A stretch of DNA of 64,000 nucleotides from an uncultured Chloroflexia bacterium. Its GTDB lineage: Bacteria > Chloroflexota > Chloroflexia > QHBQ01 > JADMIH01. Location of the stretch: contig CAWINE010000017.1 of NCBI GenBank assembly GCA_963837315.1, positions 342,549 to 406,548 on the forward strand, in the 5' to 3' direction. This document shows positions 6,134 through 64,000 of this stretch, in pieces. The notes below the pieces were generated by a model. The model ran no database searches. It was given only the letters and a program-made list of their open reading frames with translations, and was not told where the DNA came from. The number at the start of each line of letters is the position of its first letter. The stretch's first letter is position 1. The translations under genes and the position numbers were made by a program.

Positions 6134-6150
6134 TATGTAGGAGAATTTCC

Positions 6151-9057: not shown

Positions 9058-9092
9058 TCTACTGGTAATAACTCATAACTCAGAGCTCGTCT

Positions 9093-30369: not shown

Positions 30370-30379
30370 TTTGGACCGA

Positions 30380-30747: not shown

Positions 30748-30756
30748 TAGGAACCA

Positions 30757-31329
30757 ATGACAAGAACAGATTTTAGCCAATACGATCCGGAAATACCGAT
30801 GTATTGCGCGAACCACCCGGATACACAAACGTTCTTGCGCTGCGGCAAGTGCGAGAAGCCTATCTGTGCGCGGTGCCGGGTGAGTACGCCTGTGGGCTTC
30901 CGCTGCTACGATTGTGCCAACATGCAGGTAGTGCCCACTTACGCGGTCAGTGCCGATTACTACCTCAAGGCCGCCCTCATGGGTGGGGTGGCTGCCGCGA
31001 TTATAGGCGCGCTGATGGGCATCTTCCCGGGGTTCGAGTTCTGGGCTGCGCTCATTATGGGCATAGCGGTGCCTGAGGCGGTTGCGGCGGCAGCCAACCA
31101 GAAGCGTGGGCCGGGCCTGCGAGCAGTAGCAATAGGTGCTATCATTTTCGGTTTTGTACTGAGCCGTGTGGTGCTGAACGCCTTTCCCGGTCTGCTGTTG
31201 CTCGGAGGCATAAACTACCCGTCGCCGGGAGGTATCTCCTGGCTTGATCACCTGCCTATCTACGTAACCCAGTACACCATTCTATGGCTGGCAATGGCCA
31301 TTTTGCTTGCCTACCAGCGGCTTCGATAA
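30757..31329 (+). CDS. Membrane protein with N-terminal B-box-like zinc ribbon
   Basis: CANHPDTQTFLRCGKCEKPICARCRVSTPVGFRCYDC, followed by 4-5 TM segments. Confidence 0.7.
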   Translation: MTRTDFSQYDPEIPMYCANHPDTQTFLRCGKCEKPICARCRVSTPVGFRCYDCANMQVVPTYAVSADYYLKAALMGGVAAAIIGALMGIFPGFEFWAALIMGIAVPEAVAAAANQKRGPGLRAVAIGAIIFGFVLSRVVLNAFPGLLLLGGINYPSPGGISWLDHLPIYVTQYTILWLAMAILLAYQRLR

Positions 31330-31349
31330 TGCGAAGTGCGGAGTGAGTG

Positions 31350-32372
31350 ATGGAGAGCGTAAGCCGGTATTCGGATAGCGAGGAAGAGCAGAGGCTCACA
31401 GCCATCATGGCGCGCTTCTGCAGCGTGTCTGTGCTTGTAGTGGGCGACCTCGTGCTGGATAAGTACACGGTGGGCAAGCCTGTGCGCATCTCGCGGGAAG
31501 CGCCTATCCCGATCCTTGAGTTCACACGCGAATATGCTCTGCCTGGCGGCGGCACCAGCCCGGCTTGCACCGTAGCCTCCCTGGGCGGGCGCTCGTACCT
31601 GACCGGCGTGGTCGGTGTGGACGATGCGGCACACGAGCTGCTTCTGGAGCTTGCCGGCTACGGCGTGGACACAGGCGGCGTGGTGGCCGACCCGTCGAGG
31701 CCGACCATAGCCAAGAGGCGTATCGTGGCGCAGGTGACGTCCACTATTTACCAGCAGGTGGCGCGGGTGGACCATATCGACAGGCGGCCTGTGACCGAAA
31801 GTGTGGAGAGAGCGTTGATCGCCTCTATCGAGGATAGGCTGCCTCATTGTGACGCTGTGCTGCTGAGTAATTACCAGAGCGGCACGCTCACCCCGGCGCT
31901 GGTCGAGCAGACGCGCTTGCTGGCGTCGCGGCTCGGCAAGATTTCGACGGTCGACTCGCAGGGTGACCTGGCGCTTTTTCATGGCTTCGACATCGTGAAG
32001 TGCAACCAACCCGAAGCCGAGGATGCCCTGCGCAGGCCCCTCAGGAACGAGGCCGACTTCGAGGAGGGCCTGGTCCAACTCCTCAGCGAACTGAAAGCGA
32101 AAGCTGTAATCGTGACGCGCAGCGCCGAGGGGATGTCGGTAGCTACGCGTGATGGCGACTACGCGCATATCCCCGTCACCAACACCTCAGAAGTGTTCGA
32201 CGTGACAGGCGCGGGCGATACCGTGATCGCGCTGGTAACGCTAGGCCTGGCTGCCGGGGCCGACCTGTTCGATGCGGCCCGCCTGGCCAACTACGGCGCG
32301 GGCGTGGTGGTCCGCAAGTGGGGCAACGCTGTCCTCAAGCCCGATGAATTGCAGGCGGCGCTGAGTAGATGA
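31350..32372 (+). CDS. PfkB-family sugar kinase, RfaE/HldE domain-I-like (heptose-7-phosphate kinase type)
   Basis: VLVVGDLVLDKYTVGKPVRISREAPIPILEF...DVTGAGDTVIA. Confidence 0.8.
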   Translation: MESVSRYSDSEEEQRLTAIMARFCSVSVLVVGDLVLDKYTVGKPVRISREAPIPILEFTREYALPGGGTSPACTVASLGGRSYLTGVVGVDDAAHELLLELAGYGVDTGGVVADPSRPTIAKRRIVAQVTSTIYQQVARVDHIDRRPVTESVERALIASIEDRLPHCDAVLLSNYQSGTLTPALVEQTRLLASRLGKISTVDSQGDLALFHGFDIVKCNQPEAEDALRRPLRNEADFEEGLVQLLSELKAKAVIVTRSAEGMSVATRDGDYAHIPVTNTSEVFDVTGAGDTVIALVTLGLAAGADLFDAARLANYGAGVVVRKWGNAVLKPDELQAALSR

Positions 32373-32382
32373 GGCTGACGGA

Positions 32383-32665
32383 GTTGTCAGTTGTCAGTTG
32401 ACCGGCGACCGAGGACGAAACGTAAAACGTAAAACGTAAGACGTAACCGCCAAGACGCAAGAACCTCTAAGGTCGCCAAGGCTTCTATGTGTTCTAGACC
32501 AACAAATCCTCTGTGATCTCTGTGGTCTGTGTAATTCAACCATAATAACTTCGTGATCTTCGTGATCTTCGTGATCTTCGTGATTAAAAAGCCGATAGCT
32601 GATAACTACCGTCTACTGACAAATAGTGCGCTTCGCTCATCAACTGACAACCTGGTCCGACAACT
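32383..32665. repeat. Mosaic intergenic element, intermediate-length copy
   Basis: gttgtca x2, cgtaaaa x3, ccgccaagacg, ctctgtgatctctgtgg, cttcgtgat x4, ccgtctactgacaaatagtgcgcttcgctcatcaactgacaac. Confidence 0.9.
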
Positions 32666-37616: not shown

Positions 37617-39495
37617 CTACCTGACAGCGTCGCCTTTGAGCAGGCTCGTGCCGTCGGCTCCCAGCACTTCGATGTTATCGGCGGGGCCGGAAAGAGGGAT
37701 TGTGGCGGGGGTATCGGGGTAGGCGTCGAAGTGGTAACTGGTTGTGCCTGTAGAGGGGTTGGTCACCAGCAGGGTCGCGCCTTCGGTGCGCCTGGTGGGC
37801 AGGACATGAGCGATGTTGCCATCAACCGATACGGTGCCCCATGGGCTTGCCACGCTGACGCCTCCTGTGTGGGCGACGGGCTGCCATTTCTCAGTCCAGC
37901 CGAGAGCGCCGTTCGGTGGGAAGAGCGCATAGTCCCAAAATGTGGGTGTGATGCCGCCCCAAAGCTCGGCGTAAGACGAATCGCCGTCTGTGTAGACTGA
38001 GGGGTTGAGGTCGGGACCCCAGCCGAACATCTTGAGGCCCGGCATATCTTTGTTGGAGAAGGTCTTGACCAGCCCCTCGTCGGCATCGGGATTGTATACC
38101 GCCGCGAAAGCGCCTCGACTTGGGCGCAGGCGGAGCGAAGCCGCCCAGCCAGCCGCCCCATGTGGAGCTATCCGACAGCAGGCGTCCGCTGTAGTTGGGC
38201 CAACTGATAACGCTATGCGCCGCCGGCAGGCCCGTATCACTGGTGCTGTGGATTATCATTTGCGTGGTGGGGATGATGAACTGCATCCTGGTCGAGACAT
38301 GGTTGGTGCCGCCGGGAGCAACCATCGCGTTGGTCCAGAGTTGGCCGCGCTGCTGGGCTGCCGTGCGGTTCTCTATTCGCGCCGATACCGTGTAGGCATC
38401 CTCTTCGGGGCTGAGGGTGATCGTGCCTGTCACCTTCATGCCGGTCAGCCTGTCGGTGGCCGAAACTGTCACGGTGGCCCCACCATCGCCGTTGCGGGTG
38501 GTAGTGGCGTCCCAGGGGAGATATTCCATCAGGCCGTGCTCTTCGGTTGGGGCGGCCCATTCCATGCCGCCAACTCCCAGCCACCAGCCTTTGTCCGAGA
38601 AGGGTGCCGGCTTGACCACGGGGTTGCGGTATAGCTCGTCGTGGCCTGTGGGCTTGTAGATGGCTTCGTAGAGCCGCCCACCAAGTTGCGGCAGCACGCT
38701 CAGCTTGATGTAACGGTTCTCAAGCACGATAAGGCGGTAGGTGTGCACAGTAATCGGCCCCATCTTGTTGAGGTCGAGATGCGGGTATGGAGCGACCGAG
38801 TCGTTCGTGGGAGTGTAGAAACCCTCTTCGTAGCCGTACGTGGGCAGGCTCACGCTGGTCTCGGTTATTTGCACGCGCTGGGCGAGTAAATCGCGCCCCA
38901 GCAGGCCAAGCTGCACCTCGTAAGGCGTGCCCGCCTGGTCGGGGTGTAGCTCGAAGCGGTTACGCTGGAAATATTGCACGGTCACACCGTTCTCCACCAA
39001 CGGCTCGGAGATTGGGTACCCGAAGAGGGCCAGCCCGCCGTTTTGCTGCCAGTAGTCGAGGAACTTGCCTGCGAGCGTGTGCTGGGTCTCAGGGAAATAG
39101 AGGCGCGTGGGCGTGGTGGAGGCGTCTGCGACGGGCGAGGGGGCGAAGTTGCGCCCCGCAGTCTCGATGCTGCCCAGGAGGCCAAGCTGCACTTCGTAGC
39201 CGGTGCCCGCGTTTTCGGGGTGGTATTCGATACGGGCGCGCTCCAGGTATTGCACCATGAAACCGCCCTCGGTCTCCGGGTCGGTAAGAGGGTAGCCGAG
39301 GAGTGGCACGCCGCCGTGGCTGTCGAAGAAAGAGATAAATTCTGGGGCGAGCGTCTTGCCCGTCTCAGGATAGTTTCGCCCCTGTGCCTGGGCCGTTACG
39401 ATGTGCGTTCCGGCGGCGGAAAAGAATAGACCCAGCGCAAGAACTGCCAGGCTAATGCCCGCGATCTTCTTATTTGTTCTCGTTGCCATAATCAA
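37617..39495 (-). pseudogene. Secreted protein: two LGFP-like repeats plus DUF5107/mutarotase-like domain, one frameshift
   Basis: ORFs 37891-39495 and 37617-38240 join near 38105-38160 (...STWGGWLGGF / GAFAAVYNPDADEGLVKTF...). Signal peptide. FISFFDSHGGVPLLGYPLT..VQYLERARIEYHPE and FLDYWQQNGGLALFGYPIS..VQYFQRNRFELHPD. Confidence 0.7.
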
Positions 39496-39689
39496 ATACG
39501 TATCTTTACTTCAGCTTCGTCCTGTTTCGCCCAAAGAAAAGGACGGACACCCATCCGCCCTAGCATACCACAACGTGAAGACGGTTCATTCCTGCTTTGC
39601 ACATCTCGTGCTCTGGTAATAGAACGTTTTAGGCTGAGGCAGGTTGCACGGCGAGGGGTCAGGGGCCGGGAGACCAATGACGAATTACG

Positions 39690-46296: not shown

Positions 46297-46583
46297 GTTG
46301 TCAGTTGTCAGTAGAACAGTAACCGCCAAGACGCCAAGTTCCGCCAAGGTCGCCAAGGTTTTCATTGTTTAAGCCCATCAAATCCATAAGCGAAGTAGTT
46401 CGCTCATCTCTGATCTACTGTGCACTCTCTACTCATGAGAAGGGTGCCCTCTGGGCTGCGAGCTCTGATTCAAACCCATAAAAACCTTCGTGATCTTCGT
46501 GCTCTTCGTGCTCTTCGTGATTTAAAACCTGATAGCTGATAGCCGATAAGCTACCTGACAACTGACAACTGACAACTGACAAC
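46297..46583. repeat. Mosaic intergenic element with a divergent ~100-nt central insert
   Basis: gttgtca x2, ccgccaagacgccaag..., unique centre 46375-46470, aaacccataaaaaccttcgtgat units, gatagctgatagcc, ctgacaa x4. Confidence 0.85.
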
Positions 46584-46629
46584 TTGGTCATACGAACTAA
46601 GGCCAGGACAAACTAGGCCAAAAGACCGA

Positions 46630-47349: not shown

Positions 47350-49173
47350 ATGGATAACAGAGCAACCGTATCTCCCGCCAGAACCGGTACCGGGGCGCAA
47401 GCCTGGGGCCAGCCGGCGGAAGAAAGGACCTATATTAAAGGCACTCAGCTCCTGATAGTCATGGTCAGCGTGCTACTTGGTATTTTGCTAGCGGCACTCG
47501 ACCAGACTATCGTCGGCCCGGCGCTTCCCAAGATCGTTGGCGACTTGCAGGGTCTTGATCGCTATTCCTGGGTAGTTACGATCTACCTGTTGACATCCAC
47601 GATCAGCGTGCCCATTATCGGCAAGCTGTCAGATATGTATGGCCGCAAGTGGCTTTACATGGCCGGTATCGGAGTCTTCCTGATAGGCTCGGCGTTGTCG
47701 GGCATCAGCGGCGACATGAACCAGCTTATTATCTTCCGTGGCCTGCAAGGCCTGGGAGCGGGCTTCATTGCCGCCTGCGCTTTCGCAATTATCGCAGACC
47801 TTATCCCACCGGCAGACAGGGGTAAGTGGCAGGGCGTATTCGGCTCGGTATTCGGCCTCTCTTCTGTGGTCGGCCCCACGCTCGGCGGCTTTATCACAGA
47901 CAACTATAGCTGGCACTGGATATTCTATATAAACGTGCCGGTGGGCATCCTCGCCCTGGCCGTGCTTTTCTTCACCTTCCCTGCCGAAGATAAGAAGCAG
48001 GTCCGTAAGTCGATCGACTGGCTGGGCGCGGGCGCGCTGGTTGTCTCGCTCGTACCGCTCCTGATAGCCCTTTCGCTTGGCGGCACGCCCGATTGGGATT
48101 GGGGCTCGGCCAAGGTGATTGGTATGTTCGTGGTAGCGGTGGTAGCCATGGCGGCCTTCATCTTTATCGAGAGCCGTACTCCCGAACCGATAATACCGCT
48201 CGACCTGTTCAAGAACAGTATCTTCACCGTTTCAGTAGGCACAGTCTTCGTGACCGGTGTGGGTTTGTTCGGGGCGGTGCTATTCATCCCGCTCTTCATC
48301 CAGGCTATCCAGGGTGATTCCGCTACCGCCAGCGGTAACGCCATTACACCTCTGACCCTTGCAGTGGTGGTGTCGAGCGTCATCACGGGACAGATAATCT
48401 CCCGAACGGGCAGGTACCGGATTATCGGCATCATCGGCATGGGCCTGGTCACGCTCGGTATGGGCTTACTCTGGACAATGCAGATAGATGTTTCACGCTT
48501 CACCACGATCGTCTATATGATTATCATGGGTCTTGGCCTCGGTGTGGCATTCCCGCTCTACACGCTGGTAGTACAAAACGTCTTCCCGATACAACGCGTG
48601 GGCGTAGTAACGGCGGCGGTGCAGTTCTTCCGCTCGATCGGCAGCACGGTGGGCGTGGCCATCCTGGGCACGGTTGTCAACAACCAGTTCCAGAGCCAGC
48701 TCCCAGCGCAGTTGCAAAACGGCGTGAAGGCCTTGCCTCCCGATGTCGCCAAGAACATTCCTGTGGACAAACTGTTGGCGGGATTCAGCCATGTGTCTAC
48801 TCAAAGCCTGGCGACGGGCGGTGGTGGCGCAGACGCTCTCAAGGCGCAATTGCTGCAGGCCGGCACGCCGCCGTCCGCTGTGGATACAATGGCTAATCTG
48901 ATCAACACCGCCTTGAAGAACTCTCTCTTTGCGGGTATCCAGGAGGCGTTCTTGATCGGCACGATCCTGTTAGGTTTGGGTTTCGTGTTGACTATATTCC
49001 TCAAGGAGATTCCGCTCCGCAAGAGCAACCGTCCTGCACCAGGTGCAGCTATGGCTGAAGGCGGTGGCATTGAATATACGGTTGAGGAAGCAGGCAGGGA
49101 AATGGCAGCCGAGGGCTTGCCCGGGGCAACCCAGCTATCCCCTGAAGAAGAACCGGACCTGGTCCAAAGATAG
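47350..49173 (+). CDS. MFS transporter, DHA2 (EmrB/QacA, 14-TMS) drug:H+ antiporter type
   Basis: LDQTIVGPALPKI, GKLSDMYGRKW, and about 14 hydrophobic segments. Confidence 0.9.
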   Translation: MDNRATVSPARTGTGAQAWGQPAEERTYIKGTQLLIVMVSVLLGILLAALDQTIVGPALPKIVGDLQGLDRYSWVVTIYLLTSTISVPIIGKLSDMYGRKWLYMAGIGVFLIGSALSGISGDMNQLIIFRGLQGLGAGFIAACAFAIIADLIPPADRGKWQGVFGSVFGLSSVVGPTLGGFITDNYSWHWIFYINVPVGILALAVLFFTFPAEDKKQVRKSIDWLGAGALVVSLVPLLIALSLGGTPDWDWGSAKVIGMFVVAVVAMAAFIFIESRTPEPIIPLDLFKNSIFTVSVGTVFVTGVGLFGAVLFIPLFIQAIQGDSATASGNAITPLTLAVVVSSVITGQIISRTGRYRIIGIIGMGLVTLGMGLLWTMQIDVSRFTTIVYMIIMGLGLGVAFPLYTLVVQNVFPIQRVGVVTAAVQFFRSIGSTVGVAILGTVVNNQFQSQLPAQLQNGVKALPPDVAKNIPVDKLLAGFSHVSTQSLATGGGGADALKAQLLQAGTPPSAVDTMANLINTALKNSLFAGIQEAFLIGTILLGLGFVLTIFLKEIPLRKSNRPAPGAAMAEGGGIEYTVEEAGREMAAEGLPGATQLSPEEEPDLVQR

Positions 49174-49192
49174 TCATTACATTCCGAAGCAA

Positions 49193-49230
49193 GACGAAGG
49201 ACGAAGGCAGAAATGCCTTCGTCCTTCGTC
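49193..49230. terminator. GACGAAG-unit hairpin after the MFS gene
   Basis: gacgaaggacgaaggc-agaaat-gccttcgtccttcgtc. Confidence 0.7.
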
Positions 49231-49315
49231 GTCCCATGCAACCATCGCCCCTCTTCCCCGTTATACTTCCAGTCGCTGTCAAAAGGCACCCCAAAATGCG
49301 ACGCGGAGGATACAG

Positions 49316-50978
49316 GTGAAGAAAGTATTTAGCAGGGTTATGATACTTGGCGTCTTTCTCTTGACAATTGTTGGCGGTCCAGGGTTTGCATTCGCGCAAT
49401 CACAAACGGACACGCGCTTTTTCTCCGTGACACAACAATCTGTTTCAGGTCGCTTCCTTGAATATTGGAATGAAAACGGCGGGCTATTGCAGCAAGGCTA
49501 TCCGATCTCTCCTGTGCTGGAAGATCAATCAGCTATAGATGGCAAGACATATACTGTGCAGTATTTCGAGCGGGCCGTCTTCGAGATGCACCCGGAAAAC
49601 CCTCGGCCATACGACGTTGAGCTTGCGCTGCTCGGTGTGCTGGCATACCGGCAGAAATATCCCGATGGCGCGCCCAACCAGGTTCCTAATACAGACCCGG
49701 GATCTGTCTCGTATCCTGCAACGGGCAAGCGGTTGGGCGGCTCTTTCCTGGTCTACTTCAACCAGCATGGCGGCGTAGCCCAGCAAGGCCTGCCTATCTC
49801 CGACGAGTTCCAGGAGAAAAGCAGCCTCGACGGCAAGGTGCGCACCGTCCAGTATTTTGAGCGCGCAGTCTTCGAGTGGAATCCATCCGAACCAGCCTCC
49901 CTACAACGTTCTGCTGAGCCAGCTCGGCACATTCGCTTACAAAGCAAGGCAAACGCCTGCGCCTGCGCCTGTTCCCCCTCTGCCCACTACGATTGTCCCG
50001 CCGCCGGTAGGGGGCAAGGACCAGTACGCGCCCATCGGCAATGACCGGTACCTTGTATGGTCAGAGGGCGAATTGAAGTCCAGCGGCGGAGGCATAGTAA
50101 ACACCTTCGATATACGCGCCCTCGATCTGCGCACAAATAACGTGATCACCGTTACAGATGCACAGGGCGACCAGGGAGACCAGGTCCTCGACGGCAACAT
50201 GGTCGCATGGGGAAGCTATGACACCAGTTGTGCGGGCTGCCAATCTTCTGCATCGGGCGTTTACGCGAAGAACCTTGCGACAGGCCAGGAGTATACGGTA
50301 GCCACAGGCTTTGTGCCTCAAGGAACCATCGGCATATCCGGCAGAAAAGTCGCATGGCTGGAAGGTGGCGCGGCAGGTCAGCAGCTAAAGGTGAAGGACC
50401 TCGACAGCAATGAGATTACGCTGGTGCGAGAGGTCGCCACTGAAGAACCATATCTCACAAACGTACAGATGAGCGGCAACAATCTAATCTGGAGCGAGAT
50501 CGCCTATAACAATACCAAAGGGGACAGCAAGGTGTCGTACATAAAGGCCTACGACCTCAAAACAGGCCAAACACACGACGCGTATTCCTACGTGCTCGAC
50601 CCGAAGGGCTCCCTGCCCAACGTCGCATTGAGCGGCGACAGACTTGTTGTGCAAGACAGCGAGGGCAATGTCTTTGTCAAAGACCTGCCGAGTAACGATT
50701 CGTTCGAGCTTGCTTACAAAGGACTGATGAACAATCTTGTAGTTCAGGGCGATCTCATCCTGTTCAGCAGCAGCCCCGCCCATGCGGATATCAATGGCAT
50801 CAATCTGAAAAGGGCCAACACTGTAGTGCCAATAATCAACTCGGTTCCGGGCAGCTTCAGCCAGTACGAGTTCACGGTGGCCGGCGGCAGACTGGTGTAC
50901 GTGGACGCCAATGGCAACCCCTCAAGGCAAGATCGCCCCCGGTTAGTAGTGCGCGAGCTTCCGGACGCGCTAAAGTAG
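49316..50978 (+). pseudogene. Secreted protein: two LGFP-like repeats plus beta-propeller-like domain, 1-nt insertion; paralog of 51107-52777
   Basis: GTG 49316 (VKKVFSRVMILGVFLL...). ORFs 49043-50044 and 49857-50978. The paralog reads gagtggaatccgtccaaccagccg, whereas this gene has gagtggaatccatccGaaccagcct, with the extra G at ~49889. Confidence 0.8.
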
Positions 50979-53576: not shown

Positions 53577-53724
53577 ACTTATCTTTGATTGGACGCAGCG
53601 CAGGCAAAATCAAAAGCAGTACGCAGCACGTTGTCGTACCAAAGTCCCAGTGCTATGACCACCTAATAGGCTATTGTTGGGAGGGGTACCGGTTGGTAGG
53701 ATTATTATCGGAGGTATTCCATTT

Positions 53725-55050
53725 ATGAAATCACAGACTCGCTCCATGGGGATAAATCGTATTTTTGGACGGCGCGCCCGGAATGAAGCCGTCGATACTA
53801 ACACAGCTGACGCAACAAATGTAGCCGACAATCCAAGAACGAATATGCAATCGCTGGCCGCCGAGCTTCAACAATCGGCCCAGCAGGGAGAGTTCCAGTA
53901 TCCGAGGAATTGGACGCTGGTGACAAACACGTTTTCTGCGCTGCTGGTGATGCTGTCGGTGGCTCATGCAGGTCTGGTGCTGATACCTCTGGTCGCGGCG
54001 CAGGGCAATTCATTGTCTTCGCTCGTGAACTGGGCCACGCTTGGCGTTGTGCTTGGAGTAGCGGGTGCGAGCCTGGTGGCGGCTTTCCTGACGAACCTGT
54101 TTCCGACGATTCAGGTGACACCCCAGGGTCTGGGCGTGGCGGAGATTACGGGCTGGCGTTACATACCCTGGCAGCAGATAAGCGTGCTGCGGGTGATGGA
54201 GCTACACAATCGCTCGCGCTACGTGGTGCTGATTCCTTTTACGGGTAAGACCAGGCCTTCGACTCCGGCGCCTATGCTCGGCTGGCTGCCTACGCTGCTG
54301 GGAGCGTCGGGCCGGGGCGGGAGAGGGCTGCTCATTACTTCCGACATGAAGAACTTTGACAGGCTGCTCCAGCTTGTGGTGTCGTACCTGGTGCAGTCAT
54401 CCGGGCAGAACCATAACGCAATGCCTCTTGAGGCTTTTGTAGACGAAGATTCCGTGATGCCTATCGCCCAACTCTTCCTGGACCCTGACGCCGAGATTGT
54501 GCGCATTGCAGGCAGTTCCAATAATAAGTCCGATCTTTATAGTGTGAGCAGCGAGGAGACCGACGCGCCTGTCACATGGCTCCCTGTGCTCAGGAGACAA
54601 CTCCTCATTTCTCTGGTGCCGGCCTACTTGTTGCTCAGTGATGTGCTGATGCGCCACAACGAGCGACCTTTTGTGTGGCAGCATGCTGCCTGGGTGATCT
54701 TCATGCTGGTGCTCGGGATAGCCGAGTTGCCGTTCGTCGGGATGCTGGTCAGGTCGGTGGGTGAGCTGATGGTGGGGAGCGGGCAGTTCAACCGCTCGGT
54801 ATGGGCATACCTTGAGTTGCAGGTGCCGCGAGCTATCCTGATCATGGCGGGGGCAGCTCTTGTCGACCTCGGCCTGCCTGCTTTCTTTGGCGAAGCGCTC
54901 TGGTTCGCCGGTATCGTGCTCACCACTTTCCTGACTGTACGCTTCGTACAGCGTCTCTACTATATGCCTTTGAGCCATACCCTGCTGGCCGCGCTGGGCA
55001 CTTTCATCTTCCAGTTCCTTTCGCTCGCACTCTATTTCGGCGTGCGCTAG
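53725..55050 (+). CDS. Polytopic membrane protein of unknown function
   Basis: ORF 53674-55050. I prefer the ATG 53725 start (MKSQTRSMG...). It has hydrophobic segments at both ends and a soluble middle region. Confidence 0.6.
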   Translation: MKSQTRSMGINRIFGRRARNEAVDTNTADATNVADNPRTNMQSLAAELQQSAQQGEFQYPRNWTLVTNTFSALLVMLSVAHAGLVLIPLVAAQGNSLSSLVNWATLGVVLGVAGASLVAAFLTNLFPTIQVTPQGLGVAEITGWRYIPWQQISVLRVMELHNRSRYVVLIPFTGKTRPSTPAPMLGWLPTLLGASGRGGRGLLITSDMKNFDRLLQLVVSYLVQSSGQNHNAMPLEAFVDEDSVMPIAQLFLDPDAEIVRIAGSSNNKSDLYSVSSEETDAPVTWLPVLRRQLLISLVPAYLLLSDVLMRHNERPFVWQHAAWVIFMLVLGIAELPFVGMLVRSVGELMVGSGQFNRSVWAYLELQVPRAILIMAGAALVDLGLPAFFGEALWFAGIVLTTFLTVRFVQRLYYMPLSHTLLAALGTFIFQFLSLALYFGVR

Positions 55051-55055
55051 ATAGT

Positions 55056-55111
55056 ATGTCACCAAAAGCAAAAAGGTCGCCCGCGGGCGACCTTTTTGCT
55101 TTTGGTGACAT
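55056..55111. terminator. Perfect palindrome terminator with GGTCGCCCGCGGGCGACC tip
   Basis: atgtcaccaaaagcaaaaaggtcgcccgcgggcgacctttttgcttttggtgacat. Confidence 0.8.
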
Positions 55112-55263
55112 AGAAGTGCTTCCCACGCCTTACAGATTGTAGAGTTCCTGGTAAAGAAAGTAGATATTTATCCTCTTTCATGGGCGAAGCAAACCGGTAG
55201 CTCCGGCCACCGGCTTGCCTTAGGGACAATTCTACTTCAATCTGAATCGGGAAGTTTGATTCC

Positions 55264-55617
55264 TCAGGTGCGTGCTTCTACAACCAGGCGAATGGCGGTG
55301 CGCTCTTCATCGGCGATCATGACGTCGATGAAGGCGGGTATCACAACGATATCTATGCCATTCGGCTGAAGATAATCGCGGGCGATTGCAATCGCTTTAA
55401 TAGCCTGGTTGGTGGCTCCTGCGCCTATTGCCTGCACATCAGCGCGGCCATGGTTGCGTATAACCGCCGCGATCGCGCCTGCTACTGCACTTGGGCGCGA
55501 GTGTGCGGATACTTTGAGGATCTCCGTGTCGTCGTAAACGTGCACTTCTTTGGGGATAATCTCATCTGATACACCATCGAGACTGATCGTAGGATTTGTA
55601 AGGTTAGTAGGGTCCAT
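55264..55617 (-). CDS. spoVS: SpoVS-family protein with ~30-aa N-terminal extension
   Basis: ILKVSAHSRPSAVAGAIAAVIRNHGRADVQAIGAGATNQAIKAIAIARDYLQPNGIDIVVIPAFIDVMIADEERTAIRLVVE. GGAGGC RBS before ATG 55617. The ORF-track start at 55920 is unlikely. Confidence 0.85.
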   Translation of the reverse strand: MDPTNLTNPTISLDGVSDEIIPKEVHVYDDTEILKVSAHSRPSAVAGAIAAVIRNHGRADVQAIGAGATNQAIKAIAIARDYLQPNGIDIVVIPAFIDVMIADEERTAIRLVVEART

Positions 55618-56077
55618 TAAGTTGCCTCCAAAGGAGAATGTTCTGCCAACATGTCGGGGCCTCAATGTGGGACCACATGCTTCAGACAAGTCTTGAGTAT
55701 TGAATATTGACGATGCGGGTAGTCCAGGCCCAACGCAATAGTCCAAACTCAATGTGTGTAGTACGTGATAATTCGCCTTGTCGCAGCTCCGAGCGCCAGG
55801 ACGAACAGCGGTATCGCACCATTGCCCATGCTGCGGCCGCGGGTGCTGCTCTAAAACGACCTTTTGTATTTGCTTAGTCAGGCACTCATTCAGGCGCCGG
55901 AAGACGCCGCAGAGAACCAATCATAGGCTTGGACTCCTCCCCAGCGAGATTGCTGCCCTACATAACCTCCTGGGCCCCATCTGCTTGCAGGCAACCGGCC
56001 CTCGTGAGGGGGCGGTACAACGCACACCTCCCACATACTCCAGCCGCCTTTCATAATTCCTCAATCCCTCCAAACGG

Positions 56078-56112
56078 CAATCAGGCCGGCTTTATAGGCA
56101 CCGGCCTGATTG
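56078..56112. terminator. 12-bp stem hairpin downstream of rny
   Basis: caatcaggccgg-ctttataggca-ccggcctgattg. Confidence 0.6.
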
Positions 56113-56184
56113 GAATTTAGAATTCCGAATTTTGAATTCTGAGTTAATCGGTTAACTCAGAATTCAAAATTACGAATTATAAAT
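56113..56184. repeat. AT-rich GAATTYN-unit hairpin abutting the rny stop codon
   Basis: gaatttagaattccgaattttgaattctgagttaa-tcg-gttaactcagaattcaaaattacgaattataaatt. Confidence 0.85.
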
Positions 56185-57750
56185 TTACTTGGCGTACTCT
56201 ATGGCACGAGTTTCGCGGACTACGGTTACTTTGATCTGGCCCGGGTATTCCAGGCTTTCTTCGATCCGTTTGGCCACGTCTCGCGCCAATCTCATCGCGC
56301 CGAGGTCGTCTATCAACTCGGGTTTGACGAGCATTCTGACTTCGCGCCCTGCCTGTATGGCGAAGCTCTTTTCAACTCCCTCGAAAGAGTTGGCGACAGC
56401 TTCGAGCGCCTCCAGGCGTTTGATATAGTGCTCCACGCTATCGCGCCGCGCACCGGGGCGTCCACCGGAGAGGGCATCTGCGGCCTGCACTATCCAGGCC
56501 TCCACCGTTTCCGGCTCTTCCTCGTTATGGTGTGCTGCGATTGCATGTACTATCTTCTGCGACCGTCCGAGCCGCTTGGCTAGCTCCGCGCCGATGATTG
56601 CATGAGGGCCTTCGACCTCGTGGTCGACAGCTTTTCCGATGTCGTGCAACAGCGTAGCGGTCCTGGCTACGTTCACGTCGGCGCCGATTTCGGCGGCCAG
56701 GGCTGCCGCGATCTTTGCGGCCTCCACAACGTGGTGTAGCTGGTTTTGCCCGTAGCTGGTGCGGTACATCAGCCTGCCCAGTAGCTTGATAAGATCAGGA
56801 TGTAGTCCCTGAACGTTGGCGGCATAGGCAGCTTTTTCGCCCTCCTCACGCATCTGCGTTTCTACCTCTGCTTTGGCTTTCGTAACCACCTCTTCTATGC
56901 GAGCGGGGTGGATACGGCCATCGGCGATCAACTTGAGCAAAGCTCGACGGGCCACCTCACGGCGAACCGGGTCGAATGCCGACAGGGTAATGGCTTCGGG
57001 GGTCTCATCTATGATGAGGTCGACCCCTGTTGCCTGCTCGATTGCGCGGATGTTTCGTCCTTCGCGGCCGATTATACGGCCTTTCATTTCATCATTGGGC
57101 AGCGGCACAGTGGAAGTGGTGATTTCGGGCACATACTCGGATGCTGCTCTCGACGCTGCGATTGACAGTATCTTGCGTATGCGAGTGTCGGCCTCTTCTT
57201 TGACCTCGGCCTCTACCTCACGATAGCGGCGATTGGCATCTATCCTTACTTCCTCCTCGATTTCGGCAAGTAGGACTGATTTGGCCTCCCCGGCTGTCAT
57301 GCCTGCGACACGCTCCAACTCTTTGCGCTGTTCTTCCTGCATATTGCTTATGCTGGCTTGCAGAGCATCGAGCTCGCGCTCTCTGGCTAGAAGCGTTTTC
57401 TCACGTTTCTCTGTGGTTTCGAGCTTGCGGTCGAGATTCTCCTCTTTTTGCTGGAGTCTTCGCTCCTGGCGCTGCACTTCGGCTCGCCTTTCGCGGTACT
57501 CGGTTTCAACTTCGCTCCTGATCTGGTGCGATTGGTCTTTAGCTTGTAGGACTATCTCTTTACGCTGGGCTTCGACCTCCCGGATGGCTACGCCGGCCTT
57601 CTCTTCGGCGGTCTTTACCCTCTCGTCAGCCAGCTCTTTCTCTCTTGATAGAGCTGACCTCGCTGACCTGAATGCTACGTATGCGGCTACGGTGGCAATA
57701 ATTGCGACAACCGCAACTACAATCCCGATCACCGCAAGGGGATCTAACAT
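56185..57750 (-). CDS. rny: Ribonuclease Y (TM anchor, coiled coil, KH, HD domain)
   Basis: [24 protein letters not shown] (KH) and [27 protein letters not shown] (HD). GGGAGG RBS before ATG 57750 ([15 protein letters not shown]...). Confidence 0.92.
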
Positions 57751-58005
57751 AAGACACCTCCCTATTCTGTTTTTAAGGTACGTCGTTGGACGTGGTAGTA
57801 CGTTGTTTTTCGGGAGGACTACATAACCTCCCGTTCGGATTTGCCTGTGCAAGACCTTCGATACTTTTGGAGTATCGAGCAGTCCAGGTTACAGGCGTAG
57901 TTTATCTAACAGCATAGCCGCAAGGCTAATTTGTATAACTTGTATGATACAGGCGGAACGGTCTACCTGTCAAGGTCTTTACAAGAAAGTTTCGTTGGAA
58001 GCCGT

Positions 58006-58034
58006 TTGCAAACCCTGGGCGTATTTGTTATAAT
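58006..58034 (+). promoter_or_regulatory. Promoter of the tRNA cluster
   Basis: TTGCAA, 17-nt spacer, TATAAT, ~22 nt upstream of the first tRNA. Confidence 0.6.
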
Positions 58035-58056
58035 GACAGAGTTAAAAAAGGACCGC

Positions 58057-58132
58057 GTGGCTGTAGCTCAGTGGATAGAGCGTTGGGTTGCGGACCCAAA
58101 GGTCGGGGGTTCGAGCCCCTCCAGCCACGCCA
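58057..58132 (+). tRNA. tRNA-Arg, anticodon GCG, CCA encoded
   Basis: Manual cloverleaf: GTGGCTG-TA-GCTC AGTGGATA GAGC-G-TTGGG TTGCGGA CCCAA-AGGTC-GGGGG TTCGAGC CCCTC-CAGCCAC-G-CCA. Confidence 0.8.
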
Positions 58133-58172
58133 CACGAGCCGACCTAAAAGGTTGGCCCTTTTTTTAGCAAGT

Positions 58173-58258
58173 GGAGAGGTCGCATAGTGGCCTAGTGCGC
58201 TCGTCTCGAAAACGAGTGGGTCTGAAAAGCCCCGTGGGTTCGAATCCCACCCTCTCCG
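58173..58258 (+). tRNA. tRNA-Ser, anticodon CGA (long variable arm)
   Basis: GGAGAGG-TC-GCAT AGTGGCCTA GTGC-G-CTCGT CTCGAAA ACGAG-variable arm-GTGGG TTCGAAT CCCAC-CCTCTCC-G. Confidence 0.85.
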
Positions 58259-58261
58259 CCC

Positions 58262-58348
58262 AAACGAATGCGGAATGTGGAATTCGGAATGCGGAATAGC
58301 ATTTCCGTTCCACATATCAATTCCGAACTCCGCATTCCACATTCCGCA
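58262..58348. repeat. GAATGYG-unit hairpin in the spacer between the two tRNA-Ser genes
   Basis: cgaatgcggaatgtggaattcggaatgcggaat-agcatttccgttccacatatc-aattccgaactccgcattccacattccg. Confidence 0.85.
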
Positions 58349-58352
58349 ATGT

Positions 58353-58440
58353 GGAGAGGTCGCCTAGAGGCCTAGGGCGCTCGCCTGGAAAGCGGGTACG
58401 GGGAAACTCGTCGTGGGTTCGAATCCCACCCTCTCCGCCA
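58353..58440 (+). tRNA. tRNA-Ser, anticodon GGA, CCA encoded
   Basis: GGAGAGG-TC-GCCT AGAGGCCTA GGGC-G-CTCGC CTGGAAA GCGGG-variable arm-GTGGG TTCGAAT CCCAC-CCTCTCC-G-CCA. Confidence 0.85.
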
Positions 58441-58499
58441 ACGAAATCAGGCTCTTGATTTGCGATCAATATCATCGCAAATCAAGAGCCTGATTTCGT
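58441..58499. terminator. Long perfect hairpin between the tRNA cluster and the convergent RIO kinase gene
   Basis: acgaaatcaggctcttgatttgcgat-caatat-catcgcaaatcaagagcctgatttcgt. Confidence 0.8.
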
Positions 58500-59456
58500 T
58501 TACTGGTCGTCGAGCGTGATGTTGCGCGACCACATCTCCTGCGCCAGCTTTTCAGCGTTCGCCTCGATGCCGTACTTTGAGAAGTACTGGCAGACGCGGG
58601 TGACATCTCGCAGGAAGATTTCGTAGCCGTACGGGTTCACGTCGGGGTTGACCGCCTGCGGGAAGTCTATTATCTTCACCTCTCCTTCCCAGTAGAGGAT
58701 ATTGTGCGCCGACAGGTCGCCATGGATGCGGTTGTTTGCCAGCATCAGGTCTATGTTGTGCATAAGGCGGTCGAAGAGCGGACGAGCCTCTTTCTTGCTC
58801 ACAGTGACGTTCTGGAGCACTGGAGCCGGCCAATCGACGTCGCCAAAGTAGTCCATCAGAATAGCATGGTCGTTGCTGGCATATACACGTGGCACGTCGG
58901 CTCCCGCCTCATAAAGCAGGCTCAGCGTGGCGACCTCCGTGCCGAGCCAGTTCGATTGGCGCAGCTCCTGGCCGAAGCGCGTCTTGTTCTCCATCGCCCT
59001 GGCCTCGCGGCTCCCCACGCGCTTGCCCTCTTCGTTGAGCACCGTCCGGCCCATCCGGTAGAGCGAATCGTTGCGCAGGTTGCGGAAGATGCGCGGGCGG
59101 TAGAGCTTCGCCGCCAGTAGATCGACGCCAATTACCGGGTCGGCCCGGCAGCAGTAGACTGTGGCCTCCTTGCCGCCTTTCACAGGCTTCAGCACGTCCA
59201 GGATAAGGTGCTCCTCGTAGAAGCCGCTCAGATAGAGCAGTATCCACTCGCGCTCGTGCCGAGATACGTTGAACTTTTCGGCAGATTTGGAGCCGAACGA
59301 TGGGTCGAAGCCCGCCTTTGTGTCGTCGCTCTGCTCGACCAGCTCGGCCACGATGTCGGCGCGGCTTCGTTTCGGTTTCGCCCTGGGTTTGTATTTTACC
59401 GTAGCCATATCCGTATATTCTTCTAGTTCGTCCTCATAATTCCATCTGGTAGGCAT
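58500..59456 (-). CDS. RIO-type serine protein kinase
   Basis: KGGKEATVYCC, HGDLSAHNILYWEGEVKIIDFPQAV. Confidence 0.85.
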   Translation of the reverse strand: MPTRWNYEDELEEYTDMATVKYKPRAKPKRSRADIVAELVEQSDDTKAGFDPSFGSKSAEKFNVSRHEREWILLYLSGFYEEHLILDVLKPVKGGKEATVYCCRADPVIGVDLLAAKLYRPRIFRNLRNDSLYRMGRTVLNEEGKRVGSREARAMENKTRFGQELRQSNWLGTEVATLSLLYEAGADVPRVYASNDHAILMDYFGDVDWPAPVLQNVTVSKKEARPLFDRLMHNIDLMLANNRIHGDLSAHNILYWEGEVKIIDFPQAVNPDVNPYGYEIFLRDVTRVCQYFSKYGIEANAEKLAQEMWSRNITLDDQ

Positions 59457-59894
59457 GGTTGGTGAGTGCTCCTTGGGTTTGCTTCATTACTGATGTTTGA
59501 CCGCAAAAAGAGAGGCAGTGGGCTTCCAAAGTCCACTGCCCCCGGAGCATCGCCTACTATGCGGACAACGCAAAAGGCAACACAATAAAGAAGGCCGTAG
59601 CTGCGAGAGTTGCGCTACGGCCTTGCGATATTCAAATTGTCAGCTACTGAAGAGTAGCCTATCTGCACGCAAGCGCGCCCCTCCCACGAAATGGAAGACC
59701 GCTATATGAGCCGGTGGTGACAATTATTCTGCTCATACTGCCTCCCTTGCGCGGTGCTGCGCATTAGCTTACTTGCGTCCCCACTATAGCAGGGTTACGA
59801 TCAGCAAGTCAATACGTCCGGAGACCGATCTTACAGGGCGCTTGAGATGTTGACACTGATAAATCCGCAGGGCACAATGGGAACGTAATCCAAT

Positions 59895-61148
59895 ATGCTA
59901 CGAGCAGCTATTATGCCGCGTTTCGATTTCTCATCACAGGCATTCCGGGCATCCGTCTTGAGCTTTCTCGGCTCACGCCTTGTAGTTCTCACGGCTGCCT
60001 GGCTCGGGCTGAGTAACCTTCCCAGGCTCTATCATGGCGGGCCAATCACCGAGTTCGCTCTCGGCTGGGATGGCGCCTGGTACGCAGGCATCGCAAAGTT
60101 CGGCTACTTTATCCCGCCTGCGCCCTCCGTCTCTAATCTGGCGTTCCCTCCGGTCTTACCTTTGCTGGCGCATCTGCTCGGCGGGCTGTTCAGTGTCTTT
60201 GGCCTCACCATCGACGATCCTGATTATGGTAGTTACGCGCTCGCGGGACTCGTAGTAAGCAACCTGGCGTTCCTGGCGGCCCTCTACTTCCTTTGGCATC
60301 TCGTTGCCGCCAGCCATCCACAATCTGTGGCGACCCGCACGCTCTGGCTGGTCGCGGTCTTCCCGGCCGGCGTCTTCTGGTCAGCCTTCTACACCGAGTC
60401 CCTCTTTCTTTTGCTGGCGGTTGGTTGCGTGCTGGCAGCTCGTCACGCCATATGGCCCCTGGCGGGAGCACTGGGCGCCCTGGCTGTGCTCACCCGCTGG
60501 ATCGGCGTAGTGTTGGTGGTCGTGTTGATCGTGGAATGGTTAGCAGCGCGAGCAAAGAACGATAACGGCCACGATGCAGGAACGACCGCGAGTGACCGCA
60601 AGGATCCCGGTTGGGGTGATCTCGGCTGGGTTGCACTGGTCCCACTTGCGCTCGCACTCTACATGGTCTACGCATGGAGCATATCCAACAACTTATGGAT
60701 TATCGTGCAAGAACACGCCGCCTGGGGGCAATCTTTCACTTTCTTCCCGCTTACATACGCCAGGGGTGTCAGCCTGCTCTGGCAAAGCGTCGCCCAATCG
60801 GGGCCTGACAAAGACCTTGTTTTGACGGTCGGTTATGGCAACTCCCTCTACATGTGGCTCGATCTCGGCTTGCCTGTTATATTCGTTATTCTGGGAGTAA
60901 TAGGGTGGCTGCGAGGCTGGCTCATGCCTGGTGACCTGGCATGGCTTCTGGCCGGCATCATCTTCCTTCTCAGCGCAGGCAATACCGTCAGCATGACCCG
61001 CTTCTTGATGCCCTTCTGGCCTGCAGCCGTTGTGCTGGCGCGAATGGGTATTCGCAGACCGCCCATCATATGGGCATGGCTTGCTGCCTCTACGGTTCTG
61101 CTCGCAGTCTGCAGCTATCTTTTCGCCAATGAGAAATGGATAGGGTGA
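59895..61148 (+). CDS. GT-C membrane mannosyltransferase-like protein (PIG-V / GT76-like)
   Basis: WDGAWYAGIAKFGYF...NLAFPPVLPLL, and about 10 TM segments. Confidence 0.65.
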   Translation: MLRAAIMPRFDFSSQAFRASVLSFLGSRLVVLTAAWLGLSNLPRLYHGGPITEFALGWDGAWYAGIAKFGYFIPPAPSVSNLAFPPVLPLLAHLLGGLFSVFGLTIDDPDYGSYALAGLVVSNLAFLAALYFLWHLVAASHPQSVATRTLWLVAVFPAGVFWSAFYTESLFLLLAVGCVLAARHAIWPLAGALGALAVLTRWIGVVLVVVLIVEWLAARAKNDNGHDAGTTASDRKDPGWGDLGWVALVPLALALYMVYAWSISNNLWIIVQEHAAWGQSFTFFPLTYARGVSLLWQSVAQSGPDKDLVLTVGYGNSLYMWLDLGLPVIFVILGVIGWLRGWLMPGDLAWLLAGIIFLLSAGNTVSMTRFLMPFWPAAVVLARMGIRRPPIIWAWLAASTVLLAVCSYLFANEKWIG

Positions 61149-61159
61149 TGAAAGCAGCC

Positions 61160-61188
61160 TTGACACTATCCATGAGGTCCGGTAAGAT
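61160..61188 (+). promoter_or_regulatory. Promoter of the SRP RNA gene
   Basis: TTGACA, 17-nt spacer, TAAGAT, ~8 nt before the predicted 5' end. Confidence 0.6.
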
Positions 61189-61195
61189 TAACATA

Positions 61196-61462
61196 AGTCG
61201 TGCTAGATGGGGAACTAGCGGTGCCCTGTAACCCGCAAACCGCTCCAGCGGGGTTGAATTCCCTTTCGAGGTCCGACATTGTGGGACTGCGTCTGTTAAG
61301 CGGTGTTGACGATTGGGTCCTGCGCGGCGAAAGCCTACGAAATTGGTCAGGTCTGGAAGGAAGCAGCCATAAGTAGTCCCTTTCGGGTGCCGCAGGGTCG
61401 CCTGATTCGAGCTGGCTGGCAGCCGTAAGCCGGAATGCCGTATCGGAAAAGGGTGCACGACG
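61196..61462 (+). ncRNA. ffs: Signal recognition particle RNA, large Bacillus-type with Alu domain
   Basis: 5' gtcgtgctagatggggaactagcggtgccctgtaacccgc parallels the Alu-domain start of B. subtilis scRNA. Domain IV is ggtcaggtctggaaggaagcagccataag...gtgccgcagggtcgcctga. The 5' gtcgtgc pairs with the 3' gcacgac. Confidence 0.85.
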
Positions 61463-61491
61463 CAATAATTCTCTCCATATGGGGAGCCGGG

Positions 61492-61522
61492 GAGCGAGCC
61501 TGCGGGTTCGCTCTTTTGTTTT
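61492..61522 (+). terminator. Intrinsic terminator of the SRP RNA
   Basis: gagcgagcc-tgc-gggttcgctc followed by ttttgtttt. Confidence 0.75.
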
Positions 61523-61532
61523 GTAAGCTATA

Positions 61533-62207
61533 ATGACACTCATGCAATCGCAACCACCTCTCAAAGCGGTGCTGTTCGACCTGGATGGCACTCTTATAGC
61601 ATCGATCGACCATATCGTGGAGTGCTGGCAGCATACGGTGCGCACCTGCCTGGGGCGTGAGATCACCCGCGAGGAGGTGCTGCCCACGCTGGGGCGCACC
61701 CTTTACGACGCCTTCGAGGAGATCGCACCTGGCAGGAGCCAGGAAATGTATGCGTCTACAGGGCTTACCAGACCATCACACACGATACCGCTATCACCCT
61801 GGTACCCGGCACGAAGGAGACCCTGGCGCGGCTCAGAGAAGCCGGGATGTTGCTTGGCGTCGCCACCTCCAAAGGCATACCGGCAGCCACTCGCGGCCTC
61901 AACCTGTTCGGGCTTACACCATTCTTCGATACTCTCGTCACCATCGAGGACACCGAGCGGCATAAGCCATATCCCGATCCCTCTGCTGGTGGCCTCCCAA
62001 AGGCTCGGCGTGCCTCCAGCCGAGATGATCTATGTAGGCGATGCGCTTGTGGACATCAAAGCGGGCAAGGCGGCAGGCATGAGAACGGCCTGGGTTACCT
62101 GGGGCTCCGGCACCATCGAAGAGATAGACAGCCTGCACCCCGATTATAAGTTCGATAGCATGGAAGATCTGCTCTCGCTGCTTCCGACCGCTGTGCAAGC
62201 GAAGTAA
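61533..62207 (+). pseudogene. HAD-superfamily phosphatase (PGP/PpaX-like) with two compensating frameshifts
   Basis: VLFDLDGTLI (motif I) is in frame 0. The middle (VYRAYQTITHDTAITLVPGTKETLARLREAGMLLGVATSKG...HKPYPDP) is in frame -1 (ORF 61847). The C-terminus (LLVASQRLGVPPAEMIYVGDALVDIKAGKAAG) is back in frame 0. The shifts are at ~61753 and ~61982. Confidence 0.8.
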
Positions 62208-62265
62208 GCGGATATCATGCAATACGCATGGTACCGGGCAGCGGTGCAAGAACCGAAAGCATAGG

Positions 62266-62694
62266 ATGGAGAACAGCCAATATTCAAGTGAATACTCCGC
62301 GGGTGGGGTGGTCTACAGGCACAACGGCGCGCAAAGCGAAGTCGCCCTGATCTACCGCAATCGCCACGACGATTGGTCCCTTCCCAAGGGGCATATCGAG
62401 GCGGGCGAAAGTCGAGAGCAGGCAGCCCTCCGCGAAATAAAAGAAGAGACCGGCCTCGACGTTAGCATAGTGCGCCCGCTCGGAGAAGCCGTCTACTTCT
62501 TCAGAAAGAGGGGCGGCGATCTTGTTCGCAAGACCGTCTACCATTACCTAATGGAAGCTCTCACCACCGAGCTTGGCAAGCCTAACTGGGAAGTGACCGA
62601 AGCCCGCTGGGTCCCCATCACTGAGGCCCGGAGCTTGCTAAGCTATGAAAAAGATCGCGAGATGATAGGCAAGGCAATTGATGTTTTACGATAG
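62266..62694 (+). CDS. NUDIX hydrolase
   Basis: [28 protein letters not shown] Nudix box. Confidence 0.9.
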
Positions 62695-64000
62695 CGCAAA
62701 AATCTGGGTGAAAGCCGGTAACGGCGGCGACGGAAGCGCCTCGTTTCGGCGCGAGAAGTTTATACCGAAAGGCGGGCCGGACGGCGGGGACGGTGGGCGC
62801 GGCGGCAGCGTCTATCTACGCGTCAACCCCGACCTGAACACGCTCCTGACTTTCCACTACCAGCAGCATTTCAAGGCGCAGCACGGCGGTGCAGGAGCGT
62901 CCAACCAGAAGCATGGCAAGGCGGCTCCCGACCTCTATATCGATGTGCCGCCAGGCACTTTTGTAGAGATTCTGGACGAAAAGCCGCTATCAGGTGCTGC
63001 CGCCGAGATCGTACAGGCCGACCTCGTGCGCCCGGGCGACACGCTAATGGTGGCGCGGGCCGGGCGAGGCGGGCTGGGCAACACCCATTTCAAAACCTCT
63101 ACCCAGCAGGCCCCCAGGTTCGCCGAGAAAGGCGAGCCTGGACAAGAGCGCACAATAGTGATGGAGCTGAAGGTGATAGCCGACGTGGGCATCGTGGGCT
63201 ACCCCAACGTGGGCAAGTCCACCCTGCTGTCGGTGGTAAGCGCGGCTCAGCCCAAAATCGCCGATTACCCCTTCACCACCCTCCAGCCTATGCTGGGCGT
63301 GGTCAGCGTAGACGACTATACGTTCGTGATGGCCGACATTCCAGGCCTGATCGAAGGGGCCAGCGGCGGTGCCGGCCTTGGCCTCGAATTCCTGCGCCAC
63401 GTCGAACGGACTCGCCTCCTCGTACACATGGTAGATGGCTCGGCAGGATTGTGGAATCCCGAATGGGGAGTCCAGGAGGAAGAGAACGACAGATGCAGAC
63501 CAATCCGCAATCCGCAATCCGCAATCCGCAATCGAATCATCCTGCGCAGACCACCGACCCCATTGCCGATTTCAAGCGCATCAACGCGGAGCTGGAGCAG
63601 TACGACTCCGAGCTTGCAGCCAAGCCGCAGGTTATCGCCATCAACAAAGTAGATTTGCAGGAAGTGCGAGACCGCCTGCCGTCGCTCATCAAGCAGTTCC
63701 ACGACCTGGGCTATGACGAGGTTTACCCCATCTCGGCAGCTACGGGCCAGGGAGTGCAAGAGCTGATGGGCGTGGTCGCCGCGAAATTACGCGAGCTGCC
63801 GAAGCCTGCATGGCAAGAAGAGCCGGAAGAAGTTTCTGCAGAAGATGTTATCGTGAAGCCGCGCCATATCGCATCCGAGTCTCGAGCGGTTCGAGATCGT
63901 GCGCGAAGGTAAGCACCACTTCCGCGTGGTCGGCGACAGAGTGGAGCGAATGGTCACAATGACCGATATGAGCAACCCGTTCGCCCTCGACCGGATGCAG
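62681..64000 (+). pseudogene. obg: GTPase Obg/CgtA, interrupted by a repeat insertion and two frame changes; 3' end beyond the window
   Basis: N-terminus [46 protein letters not shown], then G-domain [24 protein letters not shown] (frame A). [38 protein letters not shown] is in frame A-1 (ORF 63451-63912). The OCT domain ERFEIVREGKHHFRVVGDRVERMVTMTD is back in frame A from ~63884. Confidence 0.85.
63443..63555. repeat. AATCCGC-heptamer element inserted inside obg
   Basis: ~113 nt lie between ...HMVDGS and DPIADF. The core is aatccgc x4 at 63502-63529, preceded by a degenerate complementary arm ggattgtggaatcccgaatgggg. The length is not a multiple of 3. Confidence 0.8.

Follow-up and report, generated by a model that had tools for sequence, protein, structure and literature searches.

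Can the copy number of a seven-nucleotide repeat decide whether an essential gene is read? The question is raised by the obg gene at the end of the window, by which we mean the whole 64,000-nt stretch of Chloroflexia DNA that was analysed. The gene starts at 62681 on the forward strand and is cut by the end of the window at 64000, its last 60 or so codons lying outside. It has no single uninterrupted reading frame: the frame changes twice, and the frame in which the gene starts (frame A) meets a stop codon at 63650-63652. Obg is a housekeeping GTPase of ribosome assembly, essential in every bacterium tested, and is not a contingency gene. An earlier sequence-only reading of this locus had placed the first frame change in a segment with a heptamer repeat and had raised the possibility that repeat number sets the frame.

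The frames assigned to obg agree between a three-frame translation and a tblastn search with an intact near-relative as query. By tblastn, Obg residues 3-282 fall on 62681-63520 in frame 2 (frame A), residues 265-400 on 63478-63882 in frame 1 (frame B, which is A-1), and residues 401-439 on 63884-64000, again in frame 2, with 100% identity to the full-length Obg protein P0005. Positions 62681-63454 are read in frame A and comprise the glycine-rich Obg fold of the N-terminus (62681-63150) and the beginning of the G domain, with the motifs GYPNVGKS (G1) and DIPG (G3). This N-terminal segment is 94.6% identical to intact P0005, which carries the domain PF01018 (GTP1_OBG), and by way of P0005 it aligns to residues 2-247 of the Bacillus subtilis Obg structure 1LNZ. 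The other two G-domain motifs, NKVD (G4) and SAAT (G5), are found in frame B together with the linker, on the forward strand from about 63533 to 63882. The frame B peptide closes with VIVKPRHIASES at 63882, and frame A picks up again with ERFEIVREGKHHF from 63884, at the start of the OCT (DUF1967) domain. The first 39 residues of that domain, recognized by their identity to P0005, lie in the window (63884-64000), and what follows of it comes from P0007 alone, a gene call of the source contig. The sequence-only reading was right, on this evidence, that obg shifts by -1 and then returns by a compensating change, and that the middle stretch is genuine Obg sequence out of frame with both ends.

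The first break lies in a 113-nt segment (2 mod 3; 63443-63555, forward strand) between the blocks HMVDGS, which ends at 63442, and DPIADF, which starts at 63556. Earlier this segment had been called an insertion into obg, a description that comparison with other genomes of the clade does not sustain. The corresponding loop, of the form AGLW...HPSQTT, has 18-51 residues in about 80 Obg proteins of the clade as against 5-6 in outgroups, and it stands for four residues of 1LNZ between the strand HVIDMS and the helix RDPYDDY. Judged by these alignments, the segment is a hypervariable, clade-specific surface loop, translated and normal for this Chloroflexia lineage, and in intact relatives it takes the form of a translated heptamer hairpin. 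Both loop length and copy number vary among clade members.

The composition given for the segment, a degenerate arm plus four AATCCGC units, holds up in both parts. At 63501-63533 on the forward strand, TRF finds an array of period 7 with 4.7 copies and 100% matches, which can be written as CAATCCG x4.7 or as AATCCGC x4 (63502-63529) followed by AATCG; it is translated in frame B. The pattern AATCCGCAATCCGC has 8 matches in the window, where 0.59 would be expected by chance. The array is perfect here, and the homologous arrays of relatives are degenerate. The left arm (63446-63469, forward strand) is 75% complementary to the AATCCGC array, and the homologous positions in two relatives, L100 and L102, are occupied by genuine arrays of (GCGGAAT)-like units, paired with the right arm. 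From this complementarity and homology, the window's left arm appears to be the decayed arm of an ancestral heptamer hairpin, now coding for the conserved GLWNPEWG. The loop DNA of L100 and L102, which consists of two inverted heptamer arrays, folds at -60.1 and -66.9 kcal/mol, respectively, and is translated in frame. Shuffled versions of the window's own loop fold just as well as the loop itself (z = -0.31), and the idea that this copy is itself a functional hairpin was dropped on that result. The translated heptamer-hairpin loop is nonetheless real as a feature of the lineage, and mildly novel.

Intact copies of the gene are available for comparison at several distances. Among GTDB genomes, a scan found Chloroflexia MAGs whose obg is intact, at 68-78% amino-acid identity, the best match being at 78%. 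Closer still, the N-terminal Obg fragment of the window clusters at 90% identity or more with three full-length proteins from JGI metagenomes (P0003, P0004 and P0005); the cluster has no other NCBI/ENA member. The loci of these proteins, L081, L082 and L083, are syntenic with the window at about 90% DNA identity, in the order SpoVS, RNase Y, RIO1, mannosyltransferase, HAD, NUDIX, Obg. Their obg loops hold one heptamer unit in L081, one in L083, and two plus a CCTTCGT x2.4 array in L082, all in frame. At a greater distance, the intact genes of L100/P0029, L101/P0048 and L102/P0035 each have exactly four units in the right arm, with xTTCG next to them; this arm is translated as xP[QH]SA[IL]xxPxS in a phase identical to frame B of the window.

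The arithmetic behind the idea of a repeat-gated gene is sound. The 45 nt from GAAGAG to AATCG would have to be 1 mod 3 for the first junction to be in frame, and five heptamers, or two, would make them so. A slipped-strand change in the AATCCGC array, from four units to five or from four to two, could then be imagined to toggle obg, the more so since the unit, repeated 4.7 times without a mismatch, has a length that is not a multiple of three, lies inside an open reading frame, and differs in copy number among relatives. The relatives themselves speak against such a switch: with one, two or four units, obg is in frame in all six, so that no off allele is seen at any unit number. Furthermore, four copies appear to be the conserved in-frame state, because L100, L101 and L102 share the four-unit arm in the phase of frame B. 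On the same ground we rejected the idea that a heptamer count off by one had produced the first break. If four copies are in frame, the missing base would be expected upstream of the array, in the spacer at 63455-63500 (forward strand), which is bounded by AGLW in frame A on one side and by the array in its conserved phase on the other. The blastn alignment of this spacer with L081 has a complex set of indels, and the first break is probably one base missing from it (net -1). The sequence-only reading had also offered a mis-called repeat number combined with an unrelated indel; of this, an assembly error with an unrelated indel is the part that we favour, and the repeat number is the part that fails.

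The second break can be placed to the base. At this site the window reads GAGTCTCGAG, L081 and L082 read GAGTCCGAG, and L083 reads GAATCAGAG. Compared with these three loci, the window has an extra T at 63882 on the forward strand, GAGTC[T]CGAG, which returns obg to frame A; deleting it yields KPRHIASESERFEIV, identical to P0005. A compensating change had been noted near 63881 and does restore the frame, but the base responsible is this T and not the C marked earlier. The extra T persists at any heptamer copy number. A change in the repeat alone would leave it in place and could not switch obg between an intact and a broken state.

The substitutions in the shifted segment indicate how long it has been out of frame. 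When this segment is compared with L081-L083, 19-22 of the 26-28 substitutions affect the third codon position in frame B. Read in frame B, the codon changes comprise 15-19 synonymous and 5-9 nonsynonymous; read in the frame of the N-terminus, 20-24 would be nonsynonymous. Translation of the segment in frame B has therefore continued nearly to the present, and the breaks must be either very recent or artificial.

Obg is not the only broken gene at this end of the window. The neighbouring gene for a HAD hydrolase (61533-62207, forward strand) has a -1 change at 61753, where an A is missing, and a +1 change at 61979, where there is an extra C. Pfam HAD_2 positions 1-57 and the C-terminus of the protein are in one frame and positions 98-142 in another. 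The two indels were placed by tblastx and blastn against the intact syntenic loci L001 and L081, and no repeat is involved. When 53614-64000 was aligned by blastn to the syntenic L081, frame-breaking coding indels were found only in the HAD gene (61753 and 61979) and in obg; the genes for RNase Y, the RIO1 kinase, the mannosyltransferase, the NUDIX protein and one hypothetical protein had none. The same region contains a bacterial large SRP RNA (61198-61460, 191.9 bits) and three tRNA genes at 58057-58437, with a GAATGCG x4.6 array (58266-58297) between two of the latter.

Further frameshifts were sought in the rest of the window with a codon-usage frame tracker, followed by Pfam searches of the split and repaired proteins. 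In a fur-family gene (11495-11987, forward strand) with a frameshift at about 11640-11650, FUR profile positions 2-29 and 29-121 are in two frames, and the repaired protein matches positions 2-121 in one stretch with 90 bits. For a HEAT-repeat gene on the reverse strand (16042-17023; frameshift at about 16630) repair raises the HEAT_2 score from 79 to 99 bits, and for a DUF5107 gene, also on the reverse strand (37620-39510; about 38120), it extends the profile match from 8-183 to 8-275. A gene for a repeat-containing protein (48992-50975, forward strand) appears to be shifted at about 49880, and some unnamed open reading frames may be shifted at about 19150 (19084-19200); internal similarity and codon usage point to both, and Pfam gave no support for either. 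Three other candidates, at 6861-9072 (PD40 and FemAB), 20952-22528 and 30751-32369, were rejected as separate neighbouring genes. By these alignments, profiles and codon statistics, the 64-kb window has at least eight apparent single-base indels that break a frame: two in obg, two in the HAD gene, and one each in the fur, HEAT-repeat and DUF5107 genes and the gene at about 49880.

These additional breaks bear directly on the repeat. The HAD gene is broken by a matching pair of changes without any repeat, and at least four more genes are frameshifted. Together with the T at 63882 and the in-frame relatives with one, two or four units, this leaves little room for the proposal that copy number sets the obg frame or that expression is phase variable. 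Phase variation would also be expected in a dispensable surface or modification function and not in a product such as Obg, and we regard it as highly improbable here. Very unlikely too, in our view, is a related possibility in which the indels are real, obg is truly interrupted, and full-length Obg is made through reversible slippage of the array combined with some way of reverting or bypassing the second indel. Were it true, a selfish heptamer element residing in the surface loop of an essential ribosome-assembly GTPase would switch that protein on and off stochastically.

Since obg and the HAD gene both regain their original frame, programmed recoding could also be considered, with ribosomes shifting by -1 in the loop and by +1 near 63882, and likewise in the HAD gene, to make full-length proteins. 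We find this scarcely credible. The break sites are absent from relatives of 90% identity, in which one frame suffices for the same protein; no slippery site of the form X XXY YYZ is apparent by eye in 63455-63500, and the loop has no significant structure. Other genes of the window have single shifts that are not compensated.

The explanation that we consider likely combines two layers, a real, translated Obg loop derived from heptamers and an artefactual scatter of 1-nt consensus indels in the contig. The loop would descend from a heptamer-repeat hairpin, with a (GCGGAAT)-like left arm and an (AATCCGC)-like right arm, of a type abundant in genomes of the clade; it would be translated in frame, and the four-unit right arm of the window would be its conserved state. 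Consensus errors would have hit obg twice, through loss of a base in the spacer and gain of the T at 63882, and the adjacent HAD gene twice as well; the organism's own obg is most likely intact, with about 500 codons. We infer an origin of the indels in sequencing or consensus errors from the comparisons above and from the probable nature of the source contig. This contig (482,784 bp) is probably long-read derived, because it is an unannotated NCBI/ENA entry without protein names and in this resembles the Nanopore MAG behind L005/P0036. Pipelines for Nanopore-only MAGs use one round of Medaka (PMC12313526), and residual indels break up gene calls, above all where coverage is lower than about 40x (PMC9262707; PMC12007338).

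Three observations count against an artefact. The distribution of the indels is uneven: four of the eight or more lie within 2.2 kb (61753-63882), which exceeds the uniform rate of about one per 8 kb. These four alternate as -1, +1, -1, +1, returning both the HAD gene and obg to their original frames, and for random errors a -1 followed by a +1 in both genes would be a coincidence of about one in four. Finally, only some of the indels are in short homopolymers; the T at 63882 and the A lost at 61753, for example, are outside them. The clustering could be caused by cross-mapping of reads from co-occurring relatives onto conserved genes during polishing.

The alternative is that the frameshifts are real and that obg, the HAD gene, fur and others have recently been inactivated in a decaying genome, with a second obg elsewhere or the function lost. 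That several indels are outside homopolymers fits such decay, as does the fact that about seven of the approximately 55 genes of the window are broken; the source assembly itself calls obg in pieces, the N-terminal one being P0002 and the C-terminal one P0007. Nevertheless, we consider inactivation unlikely. Judging by its substitutions, the shifted segment has remained under purifying selection in frame B until the present, and two independent hits in an essential gene are improbable. A tblastn search with the intact relative's Obg found no second obg locus within the 64-kb window, and the 90% cluster offers no other NCBI/ENA member. RNase Y, the RIO1 kinase and NUDIX, all nearby, are intact.

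If the artefact explanation is correct, a false lead has been averted: the anomaly flagged in obg, in which repeat number would decide whether an essential gene is read, most likely has no biological reality. A contig with about one frameshift per 8 kb also calls for caution with every apparent pseudogene on it. What remains is the loop. The tandem-heptamer hairpins of this clade are not only intergenic but are translated in surface loops of conserved proteins, namely Obg in several intact and independent genomes and a P-type ATPase in the window.

In the ATPase, an in-frame hairpin of the form (GGACGAA)x5 ... (CCTTCGT)x4 lies inside the open reading frame at 13523-13613 on the forward strand. 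It folds at -66.7 kcal/mol (z = -7.6) and encodes ADEGRKTKDEGRTTADESEIPSSFVLRPSSV; it serves as an internal control that such elements are translated. Its CCTTCGT unit also encodes PSSFVL in the Obg loop of the relative L082. The 1073-residue open reading frame at 11401-14622 is the ATPase, and the stretch that looks like its N-terminus overlaps, in a different frame, with the broken fur gene.

Heptamer elements are frequent in the rest of the window as well. It has 15 perfect heptamer arrays of at least three copies, 10 of them with exactly four full copies (28 nt) regardless of the unit, which suggests that array length is set by a process rather than by free slippage. Perfect heptamer arrays are present in relatives of the clade and absent in outgroups, and heptamer arrays mark this lineage genome-wide. 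The AATCCGC unit of the obg loop recurs at 5012-5076 and at 20795. At the former site a GCGGATT/AATCCGC inverted pair lies at or just upstream of the start of rimM (5003-5695). RimM has 114 residues over 83 profile positions, suggesting another lineage-specific insertion, and ribosomal protein S16 (rpsP, 4121-4699) has 192 residues for a 62-residue domain, with a long C-terminal extension. Mosaics of tandem arrays of 7-, 8-, 9- and 10-mers occur between genes at 3660-4000, 5895-6134, 29428-29556, 30379-30747, 32382-32584 and 46297-46584. Their units, among them AGTTGTC/GACAACT, CTTCGTGAT, CGCCAAGG, ACTGACA and AAACGTA, are shared between loci; the mosaics have outer inverted arms and were matched to no described family.

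A scan of metagenome contigs with the 21-mer AATCCGCAATCRAATCAYCCT, which comprises the 3' end of the obg array and its flank, gave 16 matches (L084-L099), none of them in obg. These unrelated contigs are from other organisms, and in them AATCCGCAATCRAATCAYCCT marks the 3' end of inverted repeats of the type GCGGATT/AATCCGC, elsewhere than in obg. Hairpins based on AATCCGC thus also occur beyond this lineage. The literature on heptamer repeats in Chloroflexi yielded nothing specific.

Each layer of the proposed explanation has a counterpart among known systems. The indels resemble those of long-read assemblies (Nanopore or PacBio CLR), in which scattered +1 and -1 indels split conserved genes that are intact in relatives and retain their coding signature (PMC9262707; PMC12007338). 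They differ in being partly outside homopolymers and in that four of them fall within 2.2 kb, and the sequencing platform of the window is itself deduced.

Of the four defining features of a phase-variable gene controlled by a simple sequence repeat, obg lacks three and has only a unit in the open reading frame that is not a multiple of three. The NeuO O-acetyltransferase of E. coli K1, described by Deszo et al. in 2005, reportedly has a heptanucleotide repeat in its coding region, with every third copy number in frame. As in the obg of the window, a 7-nt unit lies within an open reading frame and each copy shifts the frame by +1. Unlike obg, NeuO is dispensable and phage-borne, serves surface modification, and has many copies of the repeat and observed on and off alleles; obg, unlike NeuO, is essential and has four units only, a second and unrelated indel, and relatives that are in frame. 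A further source presents NeuO as phase-variable and contains the word "heptanucleotide" (PMC13001214).

The heptamers themselves invite comparison with two families of repeats, to which the Obg loop is likened by architecture, with membership in neither being claimed. The STRR heptamers of cyanobacteria, which Mazel et al. are said to have described in 1990, reportedly occur genome-wide. Like the arrays here, they are tandem heptamers in few copies, often in inverted pairs and mostly intergenic; they belong to a different phylum and have different units. We know of no STRRs that form translated loops of essential proteins. The Rickettsia palindromic elements (RPE), according to what Ogata et al. 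reportedly found in 2000, are inserted in frame in protein-coding genes. Both there and here a repeated palindromic family occurs between genes and inside open reading frames and is translated as an added surface segment of conserved proteins, essential ones among them; the cases seen here are the ATPase and the Obg loops of L100 and L102. The heptamer loop of the relatives is in frame in an intact conserved gene, obg, at a surface loop between a strand and a helix. The two families differ in that they have no sequence relationship, that the arms here are tandem 7-nt units differing by locus, and that the host is probably a free-living member of the Chloroflexia. Translated heptamer loops would thus be a parallel to the Rickettsia elements in an unrelated and probably free-living lineage.
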